A DNA stretch of 64,000 bases from contig OZ245056.1 in assembly GCA_965224705.1 (NCBI GenBank), positions 2,912,001 through 2,976,000 on the forward strand. The letters are read 5' to 3'. Origin of the DNA: Spirochaetaceae bacterium (GTDB lineage Bacteria > Spirochaetota > Spirochaetia > DSM-2461). The notes beneath the pieces were generated by a model. That model worked only from the letters and a program-made list of their open reading frames with translations. It ran no database searches and was not told the origin of the DNA. The position numbers were made by a program, and so were the translations under genes. Of the stretch, positions 8,641 to 59,462 are shown in pieces (positions within the stretch are counted from its first letter, which is position 1; each line of letters starts with the position of its first letter).

Positions 8641-9438
8641 TCAGAACTCCCTATAGTCGCTATCCTCATTATGGGGATTTATGTCATACTTCTTGTGCGT
8701 TTTGTAAGAATCCCCATAATCATAAGTCCCTTGAAACTCGCCGGTAACACGTTCTTTAGTTTCATTGTCAAAACATATCTGCATGCCTTCGGTCGGAGTG
8801 CCTTTCTTCCCTCTAAATCCTATAGTGCTATCATTATCATGGTGGTTAATTTTGATACCTAATTTTTTGAGGAAGTTTAACACAGTCTTTGGTTGAGCAT
8901 CTGTTGTCCTATCCGCAATGTCTCTTTCCCATAACCCGCCTTGTTCATCCTGGTATTCTTCTTCGCTGGGAATCTGATATGTCATTCCTGCAACAGTGTA
9001 TTTCTGCATCACTGGAGTCAGCATATCCGTTGTTGCGTCCTTTTGGAAATAATTTCTGTCTTTGTGGACATCAAATCCGGGGATTCCTCCTGCAAATGCA
9101 TCATCTATTGGCGTCCTATGGACTGTGCCATTCTTCGGCATCCAATAGAATGCTTTCTCATCTCTGCTATAGCTTAAATTGATCCCACTTAAATACTCTT
9201 CTTTTGTAGCATCCTCAGTAACCAGTCCCCAAAGATCCACATAATTCACCGGATCATTCCCCGTATACACATACCAATTCATCCCATCCCGAATCGGGTC
9301 AACCGTCGTAACCCCCCCAATTCAGGCCGGTAATCTCTGTAACCGTAGTTATACAGCCCCGTAAGCGGATCAAAAGGCTTCCCAACATACCCCCTCCGGT
9401 CGATTTCAATGCTTGCTGCTAAAGGGGAGCCAAACACA
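8641..9438 (-). pseudogene. Orphan RHS toxin tip with a frameshifted core fragment
   Basis: 9225-9438 matches about 5045-5260; MNWYVYTGNDPVNYVDLWGL followed by a unique tip of about 190 aa. Confidence 0.85.
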
Positions 9439-9466
9439 GTTAACAGGGTCATTATTTGGGTGTTTT

Positions 9467-9838
9467 TTATTTTCCATGAATATAGCCAATTATTCTTCCA
9501 TCTGATTTTGATATCTTAATATGTGGTACTCCACCACCCCAATAGCCACTTTCTATAGTATGTGGGAATGTCCCTTTGATATACCAGACAGTTCCATTAT
9601 CTGTCAACGCTGCAATAAATGGCCTTTTCTCCAGAACTTCCTCTCCATAGACATTGACTAGTATTGCCTCTGCTATTTTGATTGCGACTTCTTCATTTGG
9701 GACGAAACCTTCTTTTTTCCATATAACTAGTCTAGCACCGATATCAGGATCTTCTTCTTCACTTTTTTTAAAATCTTGTGATGAAGCCATTGAAACAATT
9801 AGAAATAAATAAATTGAAAACGACCATATTTTCTTCAT
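9467..9838 (-). CDS. NTF2-fold immunity protein (YbbC/YhhH-like) with signal peptide
   Basis: AIKIAEAIL..YG...P......W.IKGT....GG...I.ISK.DG.I....HGK pattern typical of RHS-associated YbbC/YhhH proteins. Confidence 0.8.
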   Translation of the reverse strand: MKKIWSFSIYLFLIVSMASSQDFKKSEEEDPDIGARLVIWKKEGFVPNEEVAIKIAEAILVNVYGEEVLEKRPFIAALTDNGTVWYIKGTFPHTIESGYWGGGVPHIKISKSDGRIIGYIHGK

Positions 9839-9864
9839 GTTTACCTCAATCAATTATTTTCCTT

Positions 9865-9928
9865 ATATCAGCTTTTAGTGTAACCTCACCGGGGTCGGAG
9901 GTCAACAGGTATTGTGGATAAAAGAATC
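9865..9928 (-). pseudogene. RHS-core fragment (SDPGEVTLKADI), cut by an IS256 end
   Basis: Similar to about 6120-6180 and 2070-2130. Confidence 0.75.
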
Positions 9929-10140
9929 GAGATATAATCAAAAGTTGTGGATAGGATGGGGGAAAAAGGGCAAATCCTCTTGTAGAATAAATGCTAATCA
10001 ACCAATACAAGAAGCAGATGCCTATGGGTAAAGAGACTATCACAGAAATGACTTCCCATGAAGAGTGCGAAAGCTGGTCCATATTGAAAAAGGTTCTACG
10101 GGGAGGTGCACGGAGAATGTTGAAACAGGCGCTGGAGGAA
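9929..10140 (+). mobile_element. IS256-family left-end remnant
   Basis: gagatataatcaaaagttgtggataggat is identical to the left end at 57857; MGKETITE...GARRMLKQALE is homologous to the transposase N-terminus. Confidence 0.85.
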
Positions 10141-10367
10141 GAACTTGCCCTCTCAAAAAGTGGGGGTTGATGCCTCTTCTGAACCCTGAAAAGTGTTACC
10201 TATGTCCTGAACCCGTACCGAGCAGTTTATTCATCATGCCCTCCTAAATGACGAAAACATCTCCGTGAATAGAATTACCTGATTGCCTGGGTTAAATCCA
10301 GGACATCGGGGAAAAAGGGGGGGGTGGCAGGGACATATCTGAGACAGATGGCGGGCCTGGTTCTTCC

Positions 10368-51225: not shown

Positions 51226-51744
51226 GAGACTCTTCAAAAACTCTTCAAATTGAATTAGGGGACCATGAAGACCATACCAGAAATCAGAGGCGGAGTGCAA
51301 GCCCTGCTGCCGCTTGAATACGAACTGCTGAATTGCAGCACCGCCCCTTTCTCCGTCATCTTCGGGTCAAAATCTTTCTGCTTTCTGAAACTCGATAACG
51401 GATGATGGTCTCCCCCGCATATAGAGCGTGCGGCCACATCATTGTAGGTGGCGTCCTCTATCATGCGCGATGAGAATCGCCCGGCGGCATAACAATAAAT
51501 GAGCAGGCACAGCATCATTCGTGGTGAATACTGGGCATGGGCCTCTCTGGTTAATAGCGAAACTATGGATGTCTATGGTATCCACGGCATCTATTATGTA
51601 ATGGGCCAGACTGTCTTTCTTTACCCAATCCCGGAGATCCGGAGGAAACAGCATGGGCGTTTCCCTGTCTACAGTTACAAATTTTGATGATATGGCTTTG
51701 AGGGTAACAGTTTTGCGCATTCTCTCAAAGTCCGACAGGCTCCT
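51226..51744 (-). mobile_element. MITE piece plus IS1182-family left-end remnant
   Basis: MLFPPDLRDWV...LIYCYA.GRFSSR.IE (DUF772-like); IR aagtccgacaggctcct at 51728-51744. Confidence 0.85.
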
Positions 51745-51842
51745 GGGAAAGTACAGGTAAAGGAGCAAGACGAATCCTTGTGGTAGAGATTGAGCTATTT
51801 AAAAGGTCGATAAATGAAAAGATACAAGGAGATATATCAAGA

Positions 51843-52787
51843 ATGACGTTTGAACAAGCCAAGATAAGCTATTTCGAGTACTGCCGAAACGAACGGCGGC
51901 TGACAGATTTGACCCTAAAAGCCTATACATTAGATTTTAGACAATTTGAAAAATTCCTGGATAATAGAAATCTGAGCAAAACAGATCCTATCAAAAAGCT
52001 GGACCGAGACTTTGTAAAAACATATATACAAAAACTCAACAGTCAGTACAGCATCAGATCCGTAAAACGAAAAATCGCTTCCTTAAAGGCATTCTTTAAC
52101 TATTTGGAATATGAAGACCATATCCCCATCAACCCCTTTAGAAAAATCAAGGTTTCATTGCCCACCCCCAAAGACCTCCCTAAAACTCTCAACCTGAAAG
52201 AAATCTCAAAAATACTGGATGAAGCCTACAGGGAACTAAACAACGCCAAAACAGATTACCAACTTTTTACAGCAACCAGAAATATTGCCATAATCGAACT
52301 GCTCTTTGCCACAGGAGCCCGTGTCTCCGAAATAGCATCGCTCAAAACCGGAGATATTGACATCGACAATGGAAGCATAAAAATCCTGGGAAAAGGCAAA
52401 AAAGAAAGAATACTCTGCATCGGAAACAAATCAGTTCTCCTAGCCTTAAGAAAATACAACGCCCTCAAAAACCCCACCCAAAGCGGGAAAGCCTTCTTCA
52501 TCAACAGAAGAGGTCTGTCATATTCTACGCAATCAATACGCTTTCTTCTCAAGCACCTCACAGCCAACGTCCTTCCCGAAAAACGTGTAACTCCTCATAT
52601 GTTCCGGCATAGCTTTGCAACACTTCTTCTGGAGGAAGGGGTGGACATAAAATACATCCAATCATTTCTTGGGCATAGTTCCATTGTAACAACTCAAATA
52701 TACACGCATGTTTGCCAAAATAAGCAACGGTATATTCTGAAGATGCACCATCCAAGGGAACGAGCCTTGCTTGTGAATGAAGGATAA
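51843..52787 (+). CDS. XerC/D-like tyrosine recombinase
   Basis: N-terminal SAM-like domain; TGARVSE, GKG.KER, HMFRHSFAT, LGHS and TQIY motifs all intact. Confidence 0.95.
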   Translation: MTFEQAKISYFEYCRNERRLTDLTLKAYTLDFRQFEKFLDNRNLSKTDPIKKLDRDFVKTYIQKLNSQYSIRSVKRKIASLKAFFNYLEYEDHIPINPFRKIKVSLPTPKDLPKTLNLKEISKILDEAYRELNNAKTDYQLFTATRNIAIIELLFATGARVSEIASLKTGDIDIDNGSIKILGKGKKERILCIGNKSVLLALRKYNALKNPTQSGKAFFINRRGLSYSTQSIRFLLKHLTANVLPEKRVTPHMFRHSFATLLLEEGVDIKYIQSFLGHSSIVTTQIYTHVCQNKQRYILKMHHPRERALLVNEG

Positions 52788-52805
52788 CTACAAATCATAA
52801 AAGAA
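52777..52805 (+). other. dif-like recombination site, left copy
   Basis: ATGAAGGATAA-CTACAAA-TCATAAAAGAA; 19 bp identical to the reverse complement of 56213-56231. Confidence 0.7.
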
Positions 52806-53853
52806 TCCCCAAAAAACCAAATTGAATTAAAGTTAGTATGTGATACTCGGGAACAACTCGTAAAACAAGGATATGAGTACAAAAAAATCTATGATCATGA
52901 TTCAGATGCTGCTCTGAAATCCTTTCTTAATAACTATGATAAGGAAAAATACAAAATAGAATATCTAGGTGGAGTTCAAAATCTTATTGATCTACTTAAA
53001 TCTGACGATAAGTATCTATATGGAAGCAAAATAATCAATCTGTCAGAAGGACTAGTGGAGTCAAGCCGCAGACAACAGGTGCCTGTTATATTGGATTTGT
53101 TAGGAGTTAAATTTTCTGGTTCTCCAATTACTGCCATAGCATTAGCAGAAAACAAGTATTTTACATCGCTAGCTGTTTCAGCTATGGGATTTGATACCCC
53201 TGATAATTTTTTTCTTAATACCCTATACACAAAAAAATATTCCAGCTATATAGATGACACTCTAAAAAAGATTGAGAAAAAATAGGTTTCCGTATATAGT
53301 AAAGGGAAATAGAGAAGATTCATCGATAGGACTTAATCAAAATAATATTTGTTCAACAATTAGTGACATAAAAAAAACTATTCGTATAATGCAAAAGGAG
53401 TTTAAAATCAATGAGTTTTTAATTGAAGAATATACTTTTGGCTATGAGATAAGTCATTATATCATTGGAGATATAAACAATATTAAAGTTAGCGAAATAT
53501 TTTCAATCGCTTACAATGGTGTCTATTGCTTTCAACAACCATTTATTTTTGGATATGAAGAGAAAAAAGGTAAAAATAGAACCCGAATCCTAATCAAAGA
53601 AATTTCTGATTTAAAAAATTCAGCTGATAGTATAGAAAAGACTTCATTAAAAATCATGGAAAATATATGCGCATATGACTTTCTTCGAATTGACTACCGG
53701 GTCAATAATGGAAAACTTTATTTTATAGAATTAAATGTGGCGCCAGCAATCAGTGAATCAAGTGAACTAGGTTTCATTGGCAAGGTTCGAGGTAAAAAGT
53801 ACTCATGCTACATTAATTATATCATTGAATCATTTATAGAAAGAGTAAATTAG
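52797..53853 (+). pseudogene. ATP-grasp protein (D-Ala-D-Ala ligase-like), with an ATA start and one frameshift
   Basis: Open frame from 52797; NLSEG...R..QVP.ILD.LG..FSGS; FPYIVK...EDSSIGL; RIDYR...YFIELN..P; frameshift in the A-run near 53280. Confidence 0.8.
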
Positions 53854-53938
53854 GGTGCAAAAATAATACCCCATCCACTAAGTGGAATAAGAGGTTTTAT
53901 ATTCCATGTCGGCAAGGGGTTTATTAGGACTGATATTT

Positions 53939-54652
53939 TTATTTCATTTTTTTGTACTTGTTGTATTCATTCAAATAGTAATTAAATTTCTTCAAGTCAT
54001 TGTTCAATAAGTAATAATAATAGTGTGTTGAATATATTTTTCTGTAAAATCGTGAGTCTGTAACATTCTTAACCCTCAAATAGCCAAGTAATTTATGACT
54101 AATAGTTTTATTCTCTTCATTTTCGCTATCAAAATTAATATATAACTTAGATATAAACTTGTTCACCAGTAATACAACTTTTAAATACTCTTCAATATCT
54201 AACAAGGAGGCAGCCTGCAATTTTTTAAAAGCTTCTTCGGCATTACCTTTTACTAAGAAATATAACGCTATATTATTTAAGGCATATGCTCTGTTATTAG
54301 GGTTTATGAACTTAAATAGCATATTTGACTTGCAAATTGATTGGTAAGCTTTTTCATGTTCTCCTATTCGTAAATACTCATATCCTATGTTGTTAAGTAG
54401 TTTTGCCACTAAAGATTTTGAATCCATTTTTTTTGCAATTTCATAAGATTCATAAAGATATTCCAAAGATTTTTTGCCTTCGAAAAAATCAGGGCATATC
54501 ATCAGTAGACCAACCAAAGATTCTGATTTTTCTTCAAAATAAGTTTTATATGTATCAAGAAATAATGGTTCAGCTTCATTTTCTCGACTTGCAACTAATG
54601 AAAGGGAAATGATTTTATATGTAATTAATAACATTTTATCATCTATTGGCAA
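53939..54652 (-). CDS. TPR-repeat region, probably the frameshifted C-terminus of the upstream ATPase
   Basis: LLNNIGYEYLRIG and ALNNIALYFL..G TPR-like units; only 8 nt from the upstream stop, across an A9 run. Confidence 0.65.
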   Translation of the reverse strand: MPIDDKMLLITYKIISLSLVASRENEAEPLFLDTYKTYFEEKSESLVGLLMICPDFFEGKKSLEYLYESYEIAKKMDSKSLVAKLLNNIGYEYLRIGEHEKAYQSICKSNMLFKFINPNNRAYALNNIALYFLVKGNAEEAFKKLQAASLLDIEEYLKVVLLVNKFISKLYINFDSENEENKTISHKLLGYLRVKNVTDSRFYRKIYSTHYYYYLLNNDLKKFNYYLNEYNKYKKMK

Positions 54653-54660
54653 GTTTTTTT

Positions 54661-56211
54661 TTATAATCTGTCAACAAGCATGATGCATTCTTCAGTATAT
54701 AACAAACATGAAAATAATTTAACTTTAAGTATATAATACTCACTAAAAATTGCTTTACTTATTTTTGATCCTGTAACTTTTTCTAGGATTTCATAAGATT
54801 CTTTAAATTTATTTATTTCAAATAATACTGTTGAATAATTAATCAAAATATTTGTGGAGATACTTTTGGAATGATTAATCAAATTAGAATAAACATCTCT
54901 TGCTTCATAAAATCTCTTATTGACAAACAGTATTTGTGCATATTCTTTATTTTCGTATTCCCATATCTCAGGGATCATAGCTGAATAAGAATGATGTGCA
55001 CGCAGTTTTGCCAGTAAAATATGATCCTTTTTAGTATGGTACTCCTCATGAATAATGAAGTTATAGATTTCAGAATGGATCCTTGGCAAATCCATTTGAT
55101 GCTTTTTGTAATATTCATATAGAAGTTCAAAAATTTTATCATGCCGAAATCCAATCAGCTGTGATTCTTGATCCACATCCAATATATCACTATCCGACAA
55201 TTTAAAAACCAAATTCTCAAGTAAATCCCTATGGAATTCTGATGGTCCGTATATTTTGGTATATAAATTTTTTAGTTTCGATACAGATATTCTTGAAGAA
55301 TATATTGTCAATATTTTTAGTACATTATTTTCGCTTGTCGAAAGATCACTAAAATCAATGCCTAATTTTTTTAATAAAGTACTTTTGATTTTTTCTAGGT
55401 CGAAAGAGTCATTTTCTAAGACAACTGAGTTATTACGATACAATTTGCTAAGTAGGGATCTTAATTCAAAAAGCGAACCTTTGCAATAATCAAAAATTAG
55501 AGAAAAATAATCACCAAGGCTTTCAAACTCAGAAAATCTACTGAATTTATCTTTTAAAATTTCATCAAAGAATTCTTTGTCAATGAACTTGTCTAGTCTA
55601 ATTATGATGTGAGGAATATTATCTTCAAGATAGAATCTCATAGTATTGTTTAAATATTCTTCTGTTGTAATGAAGATCAGTTTTAGCCATTTTTTATCAT
55701 ATGATAATGCAAAAAAATCTTTCATCTTTTGAAATGAGTCATTATCACAATTGGAAAAATTGTCGAGCACGATTGTAATTGGCTTGCGGATCTTATTATG
55801 TATCATATTTAATGCATCAAAGATTACTTTTCCAATACTATGATTACTTTTTAAAAATGCTGAAATTAAATTGTCAATGCTGTCAGAATCAACTTTGATG
55901 GCTAAACTAGCAAATGTTGTAGCAACAGCTTTAAACTTTTCAATAAGTGCTTCTTTTTGTTTGCGCTCTTTACTGATTTCTTTTGTCAAAATCTCTAAAT
56001 AACTTTGAGTCATTTCTTCTCTTGGTTTATTAGCATAAATTATGATTGTTTTCTTTTGATCCTTGAGTCCTTCTTTTGTAAATTTTGTTTTTCCAACACC
56101 GCTTTCTCCGTGAATCCAAATAGCATTTGTTTTATTTAGTGCATTCTTAAATTTTTGCATTTCATTTTTTCGATCGACAAATTTAAGATCGAAAAAATCA
56201 CTGCTTAGCAT
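54661..56211 (-). CDS. STAND-like P-loop ATPase with winged helix and TPR-like region
   Basis: FVDR..E, GESGVGKT (Walker A), IVLDNF (Walker B), FRHDKIFE..Y; very AT-rich. Confidence 0.8.
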   Translation of the reverse strand: MLSSDFFDLKFVDRKNEMQKFKNALNKTNAIWIHGESGVGKTKFTKEGLKDQKKTIIIYANKPREEMTQSYLEILTKEISKERKQKEALIEKFKAVATTFASLAIKVDSDSIDNLISAFLKSNHSIGKVIFDALNMIHNKIRKPITIVLDNFSNCDNDSFQKMKDFFALSYDKKWLKLIFITTEEYLNNTMRFYLEDNIPHIIIRLDKFIDKEFFDEILKDKFSRFSEFESLGDYFSLIFDYCKGSLFELRSLLSKLYRNNSVVLENDSFDLEKIKSTLLKKLGIDFSDLSTSENNVLKILTIYSSRISVSKLKNLYTKIYGPSEFHRDLLENLVFKLSDSDILDVDQESQLIGFRHDKIFELLYEYYKKHQMDLPRIHSEIYNFIIHEEYHTKKDHILLAKLRAHHSYSAMIPEIWEYENKEYAQILFVNKRFYEARDVYSNLINHSKSISTNILINYSTVLFEINKFKESYEILEKVTGSKISKAIFSEYYILKVKLFSCLLYTEECIMLVDRL

Positions 56212-56231
56212 AATTTGTAGTTATCCTTCAT
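56203..56231 (-). other. dif-like recombination site, right (inverted) copy
   Basis: ATGAAGGATAA-CTACAAA-TTATGCTAAGC; contains the ATG of the ATPase gene. Confidence 0.7.
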
Positions 56232-56282
56232 CAACATCATTCTAACCTAGTTTACTATAATCTGCAACAGTCAGAATCCTAT

Positions 56283-57679
56283 CCCCTATTTCTCACCAAA
56301 ACCTTGACACAAATCAGACTTTCTATCTTAAGATATTTATATGAAAAGAAATATTAAACGAAAAGAAGCCCGCTTTGATCATACAAAGTGTGAAGTCAAT
56401 CAGCTCGAATTGCAAAGACTGGAAATCAGAAAATCATTGTAAAGAATGACGGCAGGTCAACAATTTCGATGCCGGATTTCTTTTGCTCCAGCAGGTTGAG
56501 CAGAAGCACAGGATCATTGAAGAACTGTCAGATTCTTTCACCGATAAAAGAGATCAGGATAAATTACACATAACCTGGGTGCTCTTCTGAAACAGAGAAT
56601 CTTCGGAATCTGTCAGGGCTATGAAGATCTCAATGATCATGAACGATTGCGCGATGATCCACTGCTTCAATATATATGTCTCTGTGTTCTGTGATGATTT
56701 TCCCCTGATCGCCCGGCTGCGGCCGTCCAGCGTGGATGCCTGTGAGGGTACCGAAGAGATTCTGGTCAAGCTGGTTGGCGCGATCAGGGCCAGATTTCCT
56801 GATGTCCGTATCATTTTCCGTGGAGACTCGGGCTTCTGCCGTGAGAGTATCCTGAAGCAGTGTGAGATATTGAAAATCAGATATATCACCGGTATGGCAG
56901 GAAATACACGGCTGCTGAAGAAAATTGATCCGCAGATGGTTGAGGCTGAAAAGCTCTTCGGTAAAAGCAAAGAAGCCGAACGTGTTTACACCCGTTTTTC
57001 CTGGAAGACCGAAAGCAGCTGGAGTCGAAATCGGGATGTCATTGCCAGGGTGGAACATCTGCCGGGCAAGAAAAATCCCCGCTTTATTGTGACGGACATT
57101 TCTGCTGAAGAAGGGGATGCCCAATCGCTGTATGAAGATGTCTACTGTGCACGCGGCGATATGGAGAATCGCATCAAAGAGCAGCAGCTTTATCTGTTTG
57201 CCGACCGCACCTCCTCCTGGTGGATGAGTTCGAATCAGCTCCGATTGTACTTTTCGACAATCGCCTATATTTTCTTTGTCCATCTTCGAAGAATAATTCA
57301 GCAGGTCAGCGTTGATGAAACTCGAAGCATGTCCTCTACAATCCGATTAAGGATGCTTAAAGTTTCGGCCGCTGTAAAGATTACGGTTCGCCGAATCTGG
57401 ATCAGTCTGCCGGAGAGTTTTCCCTGGTGGGACATCTGGATACGAATATCCCGGGCCATCTGAGCGGTAATAAAAATAGTGGATAGTTCTCATCTGGATT
57501 CCCCGGGAAAGGTGTGCACCGAGGGTTGAAAAAACGGAAGAAAATCAGAAGAAATCGACTTAAATTGGACGGAAATAACAAGGATCAATCAACTGGAAAC
57601 TTTTTGCTTGATATATTGCCGGAGAGAACAGAAATTTTTCAGGATTTTTATGCCGTTTTATGCTGGTGAGAAATAGGGG
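56283..57679 (+). mobile_element. IS1380-family element, internally deleted and frameshifted
   Basis: Perfect 16-bp IR cccctatttctcacca; GYEDLND, RGDSGFCR and RGDMENRIKE motifs. Confidence 0.92.
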
Positions 57680-57856
57680 ATATAGCGTGCGGCCACATCA
57701 TTGTAGGTGGCGTCCTCTATCATGCGCGATGAGAATCGCCCGGCGGCATAACAATAAATGAGCAGGCACAGCATCATTTGCGGTGAATACTGGGCCATGG
57801 GCCTCTCTGGTTAATAGCGAATCTATGGATGTTTATGGCATCCACGGCATCTATTA

Positions 57857-59248
57857 GAGATATAATCAAAAGTTGTGGATAGGATAAAAAAGAGCAAATC
57901 TTCTTGTAGGATAGTTGGTGTGAAAACCATTACAAAAAGGAGATGCTCTATGAGTAAAGAAACTATCACAGAAGATGTTTTTCAGGAAGAGGCTGATCAC
58001 CAGTCTGTACTGGAAAAAGTATTACGGGAAGGAGCAAGACGGATGCTGCAGCAGGCACTAGAAAATGAGATTGAGGACTACCTCTCGAAGCATACTCAAA
58101 CTGATGAGAATGACCACCGTCTTGTTGTCCGAAACGGCTATCATCCACAGAGAGAGATTCTGACCGGGATAGGACCGATGAAAGTCAAAGCACCGCGAAT
58201 TGATGATCGGAAAATGACCCCTGAAAGAACTCAGCGGTTTATCAGTTCAATCCTGCCTCGTTATCTGAAAAAGATCCCCAGTGTGGATAACCTGCTCCCG
58301 GCTTTGTACCTGAAAGGGGTCTCGACAAATGATTTTCAAGACGCTTTAGCCTCTATCCCTGGAGAAGGAGCCAGAGGACTCTCGGCAACCAATATCGTCC
58401 GTTTGAAGAAATGCTGGGAGGATGAATTTAAGGCTTGGAATACCCGTGATTTGAGTGATAAGGAATACGCTTATATCTGGGTAGACGGCATTCACTTCAA
58501 TGTACGGCTGGATGATGACCGATGTTGTATTCTGGTCATCATAGGTGCCGATGAGCAGGGAAATAAGGAGTTGATCGCTGTTGATTCTGGGTATAGAGAA
58601 TCGGCTCTGGGCTGGAAAGAGATGTTATTGTCTCTTCGCAATAGGGGCTTGCAAGAGGCTCCCAAACTGGCTGTAGGAGATGGTGCTCCTGGTTTCTGGA
58701 AAGCCCTGGATGAGGTGTTCCCTCAGACAAAAAGGCAGCGTTGCTGGGTGCATAAAACGGCGAACATTCTGGATAAAATATCCAGGTCTGTTCAACCTAA
58801 GGCTAAGTCACTCATCCATGAAATGTACATGGCTGATACCGAGAAAAACGCACGAAAGGCGTATGATCGTTTCATCTCAGTGTATGAGAGTAAATACCCC
58901 AAAGCCACCGACTGCCTGAGGAAGGATCAGGATGATTTATTCACATTCTATTGCTTTCCGGGTATTCATTGGATGCATATCAGAACAACAAACCCGATTG
59001 AATCGACCTTTGCTGCTGTTCGGTTGAGAACCAGGCGCACCAGGGGTTGCGGCAGTCAGGTCGCCACCCTCACAATGGCCTGGAAATTATGTCTTGAGGC
59101 GCAAAAGAGGTGGAAGAGGCTCAGGGGATATAAGTTGATTCCAAAGGTCATCCAGGGAGCCTTCTGTAAAGATGGTGATTTTGTGGAATTAGTTGCGTAG
59201 GATGAAGATTTTGTTCTTTTTTTCATCCACAACAATTGACAGTATCTC
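57857..59248 (+). mobile_element. IS256-family element with a 9-bp target duplication
   Basis: Imperfect IRs gagata...gttgtggat; catctatta at 57848-57856 and 59249-59257. Confidence 0.95.
57950..59200 (+). CDS. IS256 transposase
   Basis: RNGY, WVDG, VGDG, QRCWVHK and RTTNPIES motifs. Confidence 0.95.
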   Translation: MSKETITEDVFQEEADHQSVLEKVLREGARRMLQQALENEIEDYLSKHTQTDENDHRLVVRNGYHPQREILTGIGPMKVKAPRIDDRKMTPERTQRFISSILPRYLKKIPSVDNLLPALYLKGVSTNDFQDALASIPGEGARGLSATNIVRLKKCWEDEFKAWNTRDLSDKEYAYIWVDGIHFNVRLDDDRCCILVIIGADEQGNKELIAVDSGYRESALGWKEMLLSLRNRGLQEAPKLAVGDGAPGFWKALDEVFPQTKRQRCWVHKTANILDKISRSVQPKAKSLIHEMYMADTEKNARKAYDRFISVYESKYPKATDCLRKDQDDLFTFYCFPGIHWMHIRTTNPIESTFAAVRLRTRRTRGCGSQVATLTMAWKLCLEAQKRWKRLRGYKLIPKVIQGAFCKDGDFVELVA

Positions 59249-59462
59249 CATCTATTATGTAATGGGCCAGACTGTCTTTTCTTTACCCAATCCCGGAGAT
59301 CCGGAGGAAACAGCATGGGCGTTTCCCTGTCTACAGTTACAAATTTTATGACATGGCTTTGAGGGTAACAGCTTTACGCATTCTTCAAAGTCCGACAGGC
59401 TCCTGGGAAAGTATCTGAGGATTTCAAGGAGGCGCAGAGAAGGATGCGATTTCGTTCATTAT

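Follow-up and report, generated by a model that had tools for sequence, protein, structure and literature searches.

A decayed Xer-like recombinase locus in a Spirochaetaceae genome, a probable member of a widespread family of invertible gene cassettes

What is the function of a tyrosine recombinase gene that ends in a short repeat, when the same repeat comes back, inverted, at the start of another gene 3.4 kb away? This question is raised by a stretch of 64,000 nucleotides from a Spirochaetaceae bacterium (contig OZ245056.1, positions 2,912,001 to 2,976,000), which we call the window and whose coordinates are counted from its first letter. A reading of the letters alone (hereafter the original prediction) had proposed that the recombinase flips the segment between the two repeats and so chooses which of two convergent genes is expressed behind it or, alternatively, that the repeats delimit exchangeable promoterless cassettes. 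Our analysis leads to an answer that we hold with a probability of about 75%: the locus belongs, as a decayed copy, to a widespread family of flip cassettes, in which a dedicated recombinase would drive the inversion of a cassette, and a fixed promoter on one flank would read one of its two faces.

The repeat, ATGAAGGATAACTACAAAT, is 19 bp long and occurs exactly at 52777-52795 (+) and, in inverted orientation, at 56213-56231 (-). A search tolerating up to 3 mismatches gave no match in the window beyond these two copies, and in the whole genome (3,005,944 bp, a single contig) a 17-base part of the repeat, with up to 2 mismatches allowed, is present only at these two places. The inverted repeat with its flanks comes to 27 nt at 89%. 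The stop codon of the recombinase (TAA, 52785-52787) sits inside the left copy. In both copies the distance from the repeat to the first codon of the cargo is the same, and this codon is in frame with the repeat's TAA (the left copy reads TAA CTA CAA ATC ATA, the right copy TAA CTA CAA ATT ATG). These features can be resolved into two core sites that share the spacer CTACAAA. The left site (52776-52799, +) has the outer arm AATGAAGGATAA, which contains the stop codon and an AAGGA Shine-Dalgarno sequence, and a degenerate inner arm, TCATA. The right site (56209-56232, -) has the outer arm GATGAAGGATAA and the inner arm TTATG, the ATG of which (56211-56209) is the start codon of the ATPase gene.

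The original prediction had described much of this correctly: the two inverted copies are borne out by the exact matches, by shuffling and by their uniqueness in the genome, the stop codon of the recombinase is where it had been placed, and the 11-7-11 parse of the right site fits the consensus that we find in related loci, in which the outer arm AAnnAAGGATAA is conserved, the 7-bp spacer varies and the inner arm is short, TTAT(C/G). The right site agrees with this family consensus in full, while the left site departs from it in its inner arm. The further claim, that a start codon stands at the same place behind both sites, holds for position and frame and, on the right, for the codon itself (ATG); on the left, ATA is not a usable start.

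Could the repeat be a chance match without function? Its shortness is all that speaks for this. The chance expectation is 0.05 matches, two or more matches were reached in 0/100 shuffles, and the repeats coincide with boundaries of base composition (24-34% GC between the sites vs. 41-49% outside the locus), with both gene starts and with the family motif, so that we give this explanation next to no credence. The setting of the locus, among IS1380, IS256 and IS5-like elements, suggests another origin, in which the repeats would be transposon ends (terminal inverted repeats) or would result from local insertion sequence (IS) activity, with the recombinase a bystander. This too is most improbable. 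No transposase domain is found inside the segment between the sites, the ends of the IS1380 element are distinct 19-bp repeats, and the repeat studied here is built like the core site of a tyrosine recombinase and overlaps the stop codon of the recombinase gene. Moreover, homologous recombinases are found in this arrangement across phyla, in places free of IS elements.

What kind of enzyme does the gene encode? The recombinase (51843-52787, +) is an intact Xer-like protein of 314 aa with Phage_integrase and SAM_1 domains. Alignment to XerD (PDB 1a0p, 8.9e-33) accounts for all six catalytic residues (R, K, H, R, H and Y) and for the conserved motifs ARVSE, GKGKKER, HMFRH, LGHS and IYTH, and the best matches in the PDB are XerD and XerA. 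The best NCBIfam models are those of XerC (247 bits) and XerD (238 bits), both under their respective cut-offs of 335.15 and 329.6. Models of integron integrases scored lower still relative to theirs (TIGR02249, 103 bits vs. a cut-off of 265; NF011946, 67 vs. 435), as did FimB/E-type models (54-59 bits vs. cut-offs of 221-222). In a quick IQ-TREE phylogeny, from which rows L027, L028, L053, L066, L072, L074 and L096 were dropped because of internal stops or N, the protein groups, on a long branch, with 74 homologues and apart from the genome's own Xer paralogues (SH-aLRT 96). It is 45-49% identical to members of the family vs. 28-34% to these paralogues, a Xer-like pair of which is encoded at 2.41 Mb. 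A search of 40 related genomes turned up no orthologue, identities reaching 38% at most. The window recombinase is thus foreign to the host lineage. Closer homologues do exist, the proteins P0002-P0004 being 80-91% identical to it.

The same genome also holds a second, decayed copy of the element (L017; G000:C1:1643284-1643475, -). It keeps the final 63 residues of the recombinase, 79% identical to those in the window, and ends in ATGGAGGATAGCTAATTATAC; its likeness to the window stops within the spacer, and it has an IS256-family transposase gene on one side and an IS630-like fragment on the other. Another recombinase fragment, 55% identical, is found at G000:C1:1067635-1067799.

Does the arrangement of recombinase and sites recur elsewhere? 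The homologous loci considered here are the best 80 of 496 relatives in species-representative genomes, and counts out of 80 refer to these. They come mostly from Clostridia, with single loci in Treponema, Cryomorphaceae and Paenibacillus and two in one Fibrimonadales genome; the family as a whole is spread over Bacillota, Campylobacterota, Bacteroidota, Fibrobacterota and Spirochaetota. The motif GGATAA-N7-TTAT adjoins the recombinase gene in 50/80 loci. Its position is -30 to +250 relative to the 3' end in half of the 80 loci (40), where it often spans the stop codon, just as the original prediction had anticipated for the homologues; in 11 it is upstream, at most 400 bp from the gene, and a single locus has a 3' as well as an upstream site. 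An inverted partner with an identical 7-bp spacer is present 1.7-7 kb away in 24 loci, and L080, together with L024 (identified in a relaxed search), raises the number of inverted same-spacer pairs to at least 26/80. In 23 loci, a 3' site comes with 2 kb or more of downstream sequence; such an inverted partner is present in 18 of these, a single perfect palindrome in 4 and a direct duplication in 1. The inverted repeat runs 20-64 nt further inward in 7/25 pairs, giving both faces a shared leader.

These counts bear on the possibility that the locus is an integrative element inserted at a dif-like site, of the type of integrative mobile elements exploiting Xer (IMEX), or a Xer/dif module for dimer resolution. 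A Xer-like recombinase with XerD and XerA as its closest structures, a core of the form ATAA-N-TTAT and a compositionally foreign segment would all be expected of such an element. However, integration produces direct repeats, whereas the sites are inverted here and in at least 26 relatives and direct in 1/80 only. In addition, the recombinase falls under the XerC and XerD equivalog cut-offs and is absent from the 40 related genomes, and the host already has its own Xer pair. We consider this explanation very unlikely. The single locus with a direct pair, L043, contains a two-site block (8942-10180, with the spacers TACTTGA and TCCAAAA) that is duplicated 1187 bp downstream.

The way in which sequenced contigs end offers a further indication of movement at the sites. 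Among the 40 contigs with a 3' site, 13 end no more than 130 bp from the recombinase, 6 more contigs begin at an upstream site, and several contigs of viral collections likewise break at such sites. We infer that breaks at so short a repeat are the expected effect of mixed orientations in the sequenced population.

At G042:C1:855619-859665, G043:C174:17621-19855, L063 and L076 we noticed genomes with several modules, or modules with two nested site pairs per side, such as 8892/14166 and 8926/14132 in L063. This could give rise to more than two states.

Is inversion itself seen in nature? A collection of plasmids provided Aliarcobacter homologues of the recombinase, 45% identical to that of the window, on closed plasmids of cultured isolates. 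In a BLAST comparison of two of these, pM830MA and pACRY43158, the flank with the recombinase matches at 100% over 985 bp on the same strand and the far flank at 99.8% over 3513 bp, also on the same strand, whereas the cassette between them matches at 99.9% over 3458 bp on the opposite strand. Neighbouring BLAST blocks share 17 and 20 nt, which are the inverted sites ATAATAATAGGATATTAT. The recombinase and the genes of the far flank (encoding a DUF4172-Fic protein and an AAA ATPase) have identical protein accessions in both records. The difference between these isolates is thus a clean inversion of the cassette, or its re-insertion in the other orientation, at the sites. The inverted cassette has a Ddl-like ATP-grasp gene facing a gene for an 823-aa protein, the same type of cargo as in the window. 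The original prediction of inversion linked to the recombinase therefore stands for the family, with inverted pairs in at least 26/80 loci and both orientations in two plasmids; it finds no support for the window copy, which looks decayed.

On the Aliarcobacter plasmids pM830MA and pAFAEC (among L122-L125), the platform adjoins a DUF4172-Fic gene and an AAA_14 ATPase gene, and in pM830MA the recombinase is the first gene of the record.

Cassettes are not only inverted but also replaced or absent. The plasmid pAFAEC has the same platform as pM830MA (recombinase 98% identical) with another cassette, and homology ends exactly at the inner edge of the identical sites. The loci L032 and L038, with recombinases that are 91% identical, are homologous up to the sites on both sides and carry unrelated cargo between sites with different spacers; L087 and L089 (91%) differ in the same manner. 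L097 corresponds to L086 (recombinases 94.6% identical) minus a 5.0-kb cassette, the homology blocks overlapping by 17 nt at one palindromic site. Such single perfect palindromic sites, made up of outer arm, spacer and outer arm without any cassette, are present in L097 (5565-5599), L022 (8898), L021 (8953) and L028 (7289). Recombinases that are 94.6-97.7% identical have different spacers. One plasmid, pACRY43158, has a second module with the sites TGATAA-TAGGTAA-TTATG, and the recombinases of its two platforms are 61% identical.

Might exchange, then, be the primary activity and inversion a by-product? The locus would in this case resemble a landing platform for recombinase-mediated cassette exchange (RMCE), or an integron without attC hairpins, with promoterless two-faced cassettes that are swapped and are read from platform promoters in either orientation. 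At the level of the family, the alternative offered in the original prediction, that of exchangeable cassettes, is well founded: near-identical platforms carry unrelated, site-bounded cassettes (pM830MA/pAFAEC, at identical sites, L032/L038 and L087/L089), L097 is an exact empty platform with respect to L086, single palindromes occur in L021, L022 and L028, the cargo is AT-rich relative to its host, and highly similar recombinases have different spacers. On the other hand, L032 and L038 do not share a spacer, nor do L086 and L097, so these replacements are not simple double crossovers at identical sites and may reflect homologous recombination in the flanks. A conservative single crossover between inverted sites cannot excise or insert a cassette, and cannot give rise to the empty platform. 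No circular or donor form was seen, and the promoter-like box is on one flank only. We regard exchange as the primary function as a real possibility, though one less likely than not. The exchange idea is compatible with a recombinase-driven flip cassette and is not exclusive of it.

Which promoter would read the cassette? Outside the right site of the window there is a promoter-like sequence, TTGCAG-N17-TAGAAT (56239-56267, -), which reads into the segment and whose -10 box ends 6 nt before the outer arm. It matches the consensus at 8/12 positions, the best match in this flank, and the -10 boxes of the relatives are at the same position. The original prediction had placed the end of a short frame here; just 48 bp separate the site from the terminal inverted repeat of IS1380, and the stretch is better read as promoter-like. 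Among the relatives, an exact TATAAT occurs within the 80-nt outer flank on the promoter side in 11/25 loci and on the other flank in 0/25; shuffling the flanks 500 times gave 3.9 loci on average and never more than 9. Promoter scores of at least 9 of 12 were obtained for 14 loci on the promoter side vs. 0 on the other, the box usually ending 6-16 nt before the arm. The promoter side is the one away from the recombinase if the cassette is downstream of it, and the one next to the start of the recombinase gene if the cassette is upstream.

A strong, terminator-like hairpin (z -5 to -9) lies between the recombinase stop codon and the near site in 8/14 loci tested, occurring where the near site is 30-60 bp after the stop. 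The idea that the gene behind the recombinase is the one expressed is not supported, given the position of TATAAT on the opposite flank and these hairpins; on sequence grounds, the recombinase-distal flank is the most likely place of the driving promoter. Because the best flank match of the window lies outside the right site, the ATPase face would be at the promoter in the assembled orientation, and the ATP-grasp face would abut the recombinase. Homologous cassettes with an ATP-grasp protein and a large protein occur with either face on the promoter side: the large protein is there in the window, L035 and pM830MA, and the ATP-grasp protein in L032, L026, L094, L122 and L125.

These observations are consistent with the following scheme. 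The platform consists of its own Xer-like tyrosine recombinase, of a core site that overlaps or closely follows the stop codon of the recombinase gene, and of an inverted second site with a putative promoter outward of it. Between the sites lies an AT-rich cassette of two convergent genes or gene sets, with one start immediately behind each site. The probable catalyst is the adjacent recombinase, which would exchange strands within the identical 7-bp spacers, causing the cassette to invert. Inversion would put one or the other face behind the fixed promoter, while the other face would abut the recombinase stop codon or a terminator. Were the flank promoter the only driver, expression would be either/or. 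Replacement and loss of cassettes also take place precisely at the sites.

What do the cassettes carry? In the relatives, they are AT-rich compared with their flanks, and their gene sets always converge from the two sites; the 3' ends of the convergent genes overlap in 14/25 cassettes, and in all three annotated Aliarcobacter cassettes. The same pairings come back repeatedly. A STAND-like ATPase faces a Ddl-like ATP-grasp protein (Pfam assignments) in the window, L035, L032, L094, L026, L122 and L125. Large AAA or Mrr ATPases are paired with GT2 proteins in L096, L083, L038 and L063, and possibly in L099/L103, and STAND proteins with SHMT in L085 and L055. An ATP-grasp/radical-SAM fusion is paired with a pentapeptide-repeat protein in L092, L050, L072 and L080, and a methyltransferase with an unknown protein of about 335 aa in L076, L090, L059 and L124. 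The remaining combinations are SIR2-STALD with TIR (L040 and L078), TIR with a small nSTAND3-like kinase (L084 and L019) and SIR2 with an aminotransferase (L086). Since the members of one pairing are only 22-34% identical, the pairings appear to be old. A search that started from the cargo led back to the sites: among 162 genomes of its class, the L035 ATP-grasp protein had 2 matches, L035 itself and a new one, which is encoded directly behind GGATAA-TAAGTAA-TTATCC at the start of a contig.

PADLOC recognised 5/25 of the cargo proteins scanned, among them ThsA (1.1e-60) and ThsB, and 20/25 were without a match; the only match of the window ATPase was a weak one to PDC-S59 (6.3e-06). The Thoeris-like pair of ThsA (SIR2-STALD) and ThsB (TIR) is arranged tail-to-tail in the cassettes of L040 (8916-11260) and L078 (187-2443). 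The cargo may act in phage defence or other conflicts.

Is the switch in the window still working? Its two genes are convergent and form an AT-rich cassette like those of the relatives, but both are broken. The Ddl-like ATP-grasp gene (52797-53853, +) begins with ATA and has a frameshift between 53144 and 53287, which divides it into two open reading frames (ORFs), 52788-53285 and 53272-53853, the second of which contains PF07478. A tblastn search of the window with the L094 ATP-grasp protein matched in both frames at 31-32% identity. The sequence of this region was confirmed by a contig of run X7, from an independent study, which spans 53208-53939 with 0 differences. The gene on the opposite strand (53939-56211, -), which encodes a STAND-like P-loop ATPase with a C-terminal TPR region, is split at a run of nine T (54654-54662) into an ATPase piece (54661-56211, 516 aa, with AAA_16, AAA_22, NPHP3_N and nSTAND6) and a TPR piece (53939-54652, 237 aa, TPR_12). 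Its counterparts in the relatives are single proteins of about 800 aa. When ten of the relatives' cargo proteins were compared with the window cassette by tblastn, two gave matches, both of them ATP-grasp proteins (L094 at 31-32%, and L026 at 36% over 59 residues), and none of the ten gave an ATPase match. Since no relative's ATPase was matched in this way, the homology of the window ATPase is one of domains alone. Neither a resolvase/invertase domain nor a pilV-like gene was detected among the 13 ORFs scanned.

The left site has also deteriorated. Two contigs of one metagenome, L099 and L103, have the exact site and spacer of the window followed by TTATG, the ATG of which starts both of the opposed genes, and L024 resembles them in having TTATG at the position of the inner arm. 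Because all three read TTATG, the left site of the window appears to bear two substitutions (TCATA). L099 and L103 may be the two ends of one cassette, but their overlap is limited to the 32-nt site repeat. The metagenome scan with the 19-mer gave 7 matches altogether; the other five (L100, L101, L102, L104 and L105) are without inner arm or recombinase context, and were set aside as chance or unrelated matches.

The mutated left arm and start codon, the frameshifts in both cargo genes, the IS elements on either side and the lack of any strand-changing joint in the data described below lead us to regard the window copy as a relic whose recombinase gene is intact. Here the switch has probably ceased to work, and the claim of the original prediction that the recombinase flips this very segment is not supported, although the copy may still flip rarely. 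In run X1, from another study, contigs with 90-95% likeness to the cassette break off at the two sites (52800 and 56227), which the runs closest to the window bridge; this could be due to different flanks or to mixed orientation in that sample.

Several observations weigh against the recombinase-driven switch. In the Logan contigs of four public runs, no strand-changing joint was found at either site of the window, and the contigs of X5, X6 and X7 bridge the window junctions in the assembled orientation only; since contigs drop rare variants, the missing flipped junction is weak evidence. The plasmids in which inversion is seen have a site, ATAATAATAGGATATTAT, that differs from that of the window, and a recombinase only 45% identical to its recombinase. 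The TTAT of the relatives' inner arms was partly imposed by the search pattern. The evidence for the promoter is consensus matching throughout, and a general consensus promoter scan of 51400-56700 did not list the flank candidate TTGCAG-N17-TAGAAT, which was below its threshold; the same scan, for promoters and terminators, was uninformative, with 28 promoter-like sites vs. 24.5 expected. Expression need not be strictly either/or, since a site overlapping the stop codon, as in the window, could allow read-through from the recombinase gene to express the near face as well. Lastly, Thoeris needs both ThsA and ThsB, and the Thoeris-like cargo thus fits either/or expression poorly.

The locus is framed by IS elements. 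At its left boundary is an IS5/IS1182-like fragment (51421-51753, -) that retains the N-terminus of a DUF772 transposase (PF05598, on the ORF 51258-51518) and is involved in the direct repeats D1, D2, D4, D6, D8 and D9. A second copy of this fragment (57680-57856 plus 59249-59413) is split by an IS256/Mutator-family element (57857-59248, +; Transposase_mut, 1.3e-64; inverted repeat I1) with a 9-bp target duplication, the repeats D4 and D8 overlapping by 9 bp. On the right, an IS1380-family element (56280-57682, +; DDE_Tnp_1_4, 9e-71) with perfect 19-bp terminal inverted repeats (I6, 56280-56298) begins 48 bp outside the right site and 12 nt upstream of the -35-like hexamer. It is a multi-copy element, as seen from its high depth in public runs. 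The window copy is short, its transposase frame spanning only profile positions 173-426, and is probably frameshifted, since other copies in the runs have an extra A after 56453 and after 56560.

How does the family compare with known systems? Full-text literature searches yielded no description of it, subscription-only papers being outside their scope, nor did passages of PMC9881135, PMC13552941 and PMC9535334. The nearest parallels are found in mycoplasmas. According to the discussion of PMC3047005, a Xer-like recombinase encoded in the locus acts on short sites in the genes' 5' regions, and the resulting inversion brings a silent ORF to a unique active promoter; such loci, with XerC/D-like recombinases, are vsp of M. 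bovis, vpma of M. agalactiae, vsa of M. pulmonis, and mba and UU172 of Ureaplasma. The window resembles vsp and vpma in having a locus-encoded Xer-like recombinase and sites at the 5' ends of the switched genes. In the mycoplasmas, however, the genes encode paralogous surface lipoproteins involved in antigenic variation, whereas here one convergent cassette holds two unrelated cytoplasmic genes or gene sets, an enzyme facing an NTPase, a NADase or a TIR protein. The flip cassettes are also AT-rich, change from strain to strain and occur in several phyla.

In the G segment of phage Mu (inverted by Gin) and the C segment of P1 (Cin), a kilobase segment carries two opposed alternative gene sets read from a fixed outside promoter. 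Gin and Cin, which belong with Hin and Pin to the serine invertases, act with an enhancer, the pilin inversion of Moraxella depends on Piv, and the alternatives are versions of a single function with a constant 5' coding part in common. The flip cassettes differ from all of these in their tyrosine recombinase, in switching whole unrelated genes and in having no constant coding part. The sfx sites of the R64 shufflon, on which the tyrosine recombinase Rci acts, are asymmetric: the spacer measures 7 bp, and of the two arms one is conserved and the other poorly so. C-terminal exons of pilV are shuffled among several segments. The likeness to the flip cassettes is in the anatomy of the site (7-bp spacer and one conserved arm) and in the outcome of inversion; the apparent difference is that here there are usually two sites, whole genes and a swap of promoter.

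With XerC/XerD-dif, and with XerH, XerS and XerA, the recombinase of the window shares its fold, its catalytic residues and the ATAA-spacer-TTAT core; those systems, however, act on a single terminus site, whereas here the protein is below the equivalog cut-offs, is not conserved in related genomes and is associated with paired inverted sites around cargo. Integrons likewise have a platform recombinase, a fixed promoter, exchangeable promoterless cargo and sharp site boundaries. As far as the sequences indicate, the flip cassettes would differ from them by having inverted core sites of 17-30 bp rather than attC hairpins, and one two-faced cassette rather than a co-directional array. Finally, fimS (FimB/FimE), the switches of Bacteroides and C. 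difficile and the hsdS invertons (PsrA/CreX) also generate population heterogeneity, through inversion by tyrosine recombinases at short inverted repeats. In those cases, a promoter or parts of one coding sequence are inverted, whereas here the promoter would be fixed outside the cassette and whole genes would swap.

Why should two unrelated genes share a switch? A speculative answer, which we think has a minor chance of being right, is that the two faces are an incompatible pair that no single cell may produce together, an enzyme modifying small molecules or macromolecules and an effector that senses the modification. Inversion, a single fixed promoter and overlapping tail-to-tail genes would keep them exclusive. 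The population would then be divided into markers and restrictors, a split that may be likened to Pgl, a type of population-level immunity, and the platform would double as an integron-like site of acquisition at which such pairs are exchanged or lost. The enzyme would tentatively be the ATP-grasp protein, glycosyltransferase, methyltransferase, aminotransferase, SHMT or radical SAM protein, and the effector the STAND, AAA or Mrr ATPase, or the SIR2 or TIR protein.

For the host, the recombinase-driven flip cassette would account for an odd AT-rich island in its genome as the relic of a switch caught between insertion sequences. For the family, the significance is wider. Xer-like inversion is known for antigenic variation, and the flip cassettes would apply the same logic to whole pairs of unrelated genes, many of which resemble immune sensors or effectors paired with modifying enzymes. 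Because only 5/25 of the cargo proteins match defence models, the recombinase and its site could serve as a search handle for unknown conflict systems, the linkage of cargo to sites providing built-in evidence of which genes form a unit. With its sharp boundaries, empty platform and replacements, the family seems to have a cassette economy that differs from that of integrons, and recombinases with such short, asymmetric sites could be useful tools for the inversion or exchange of DNA.

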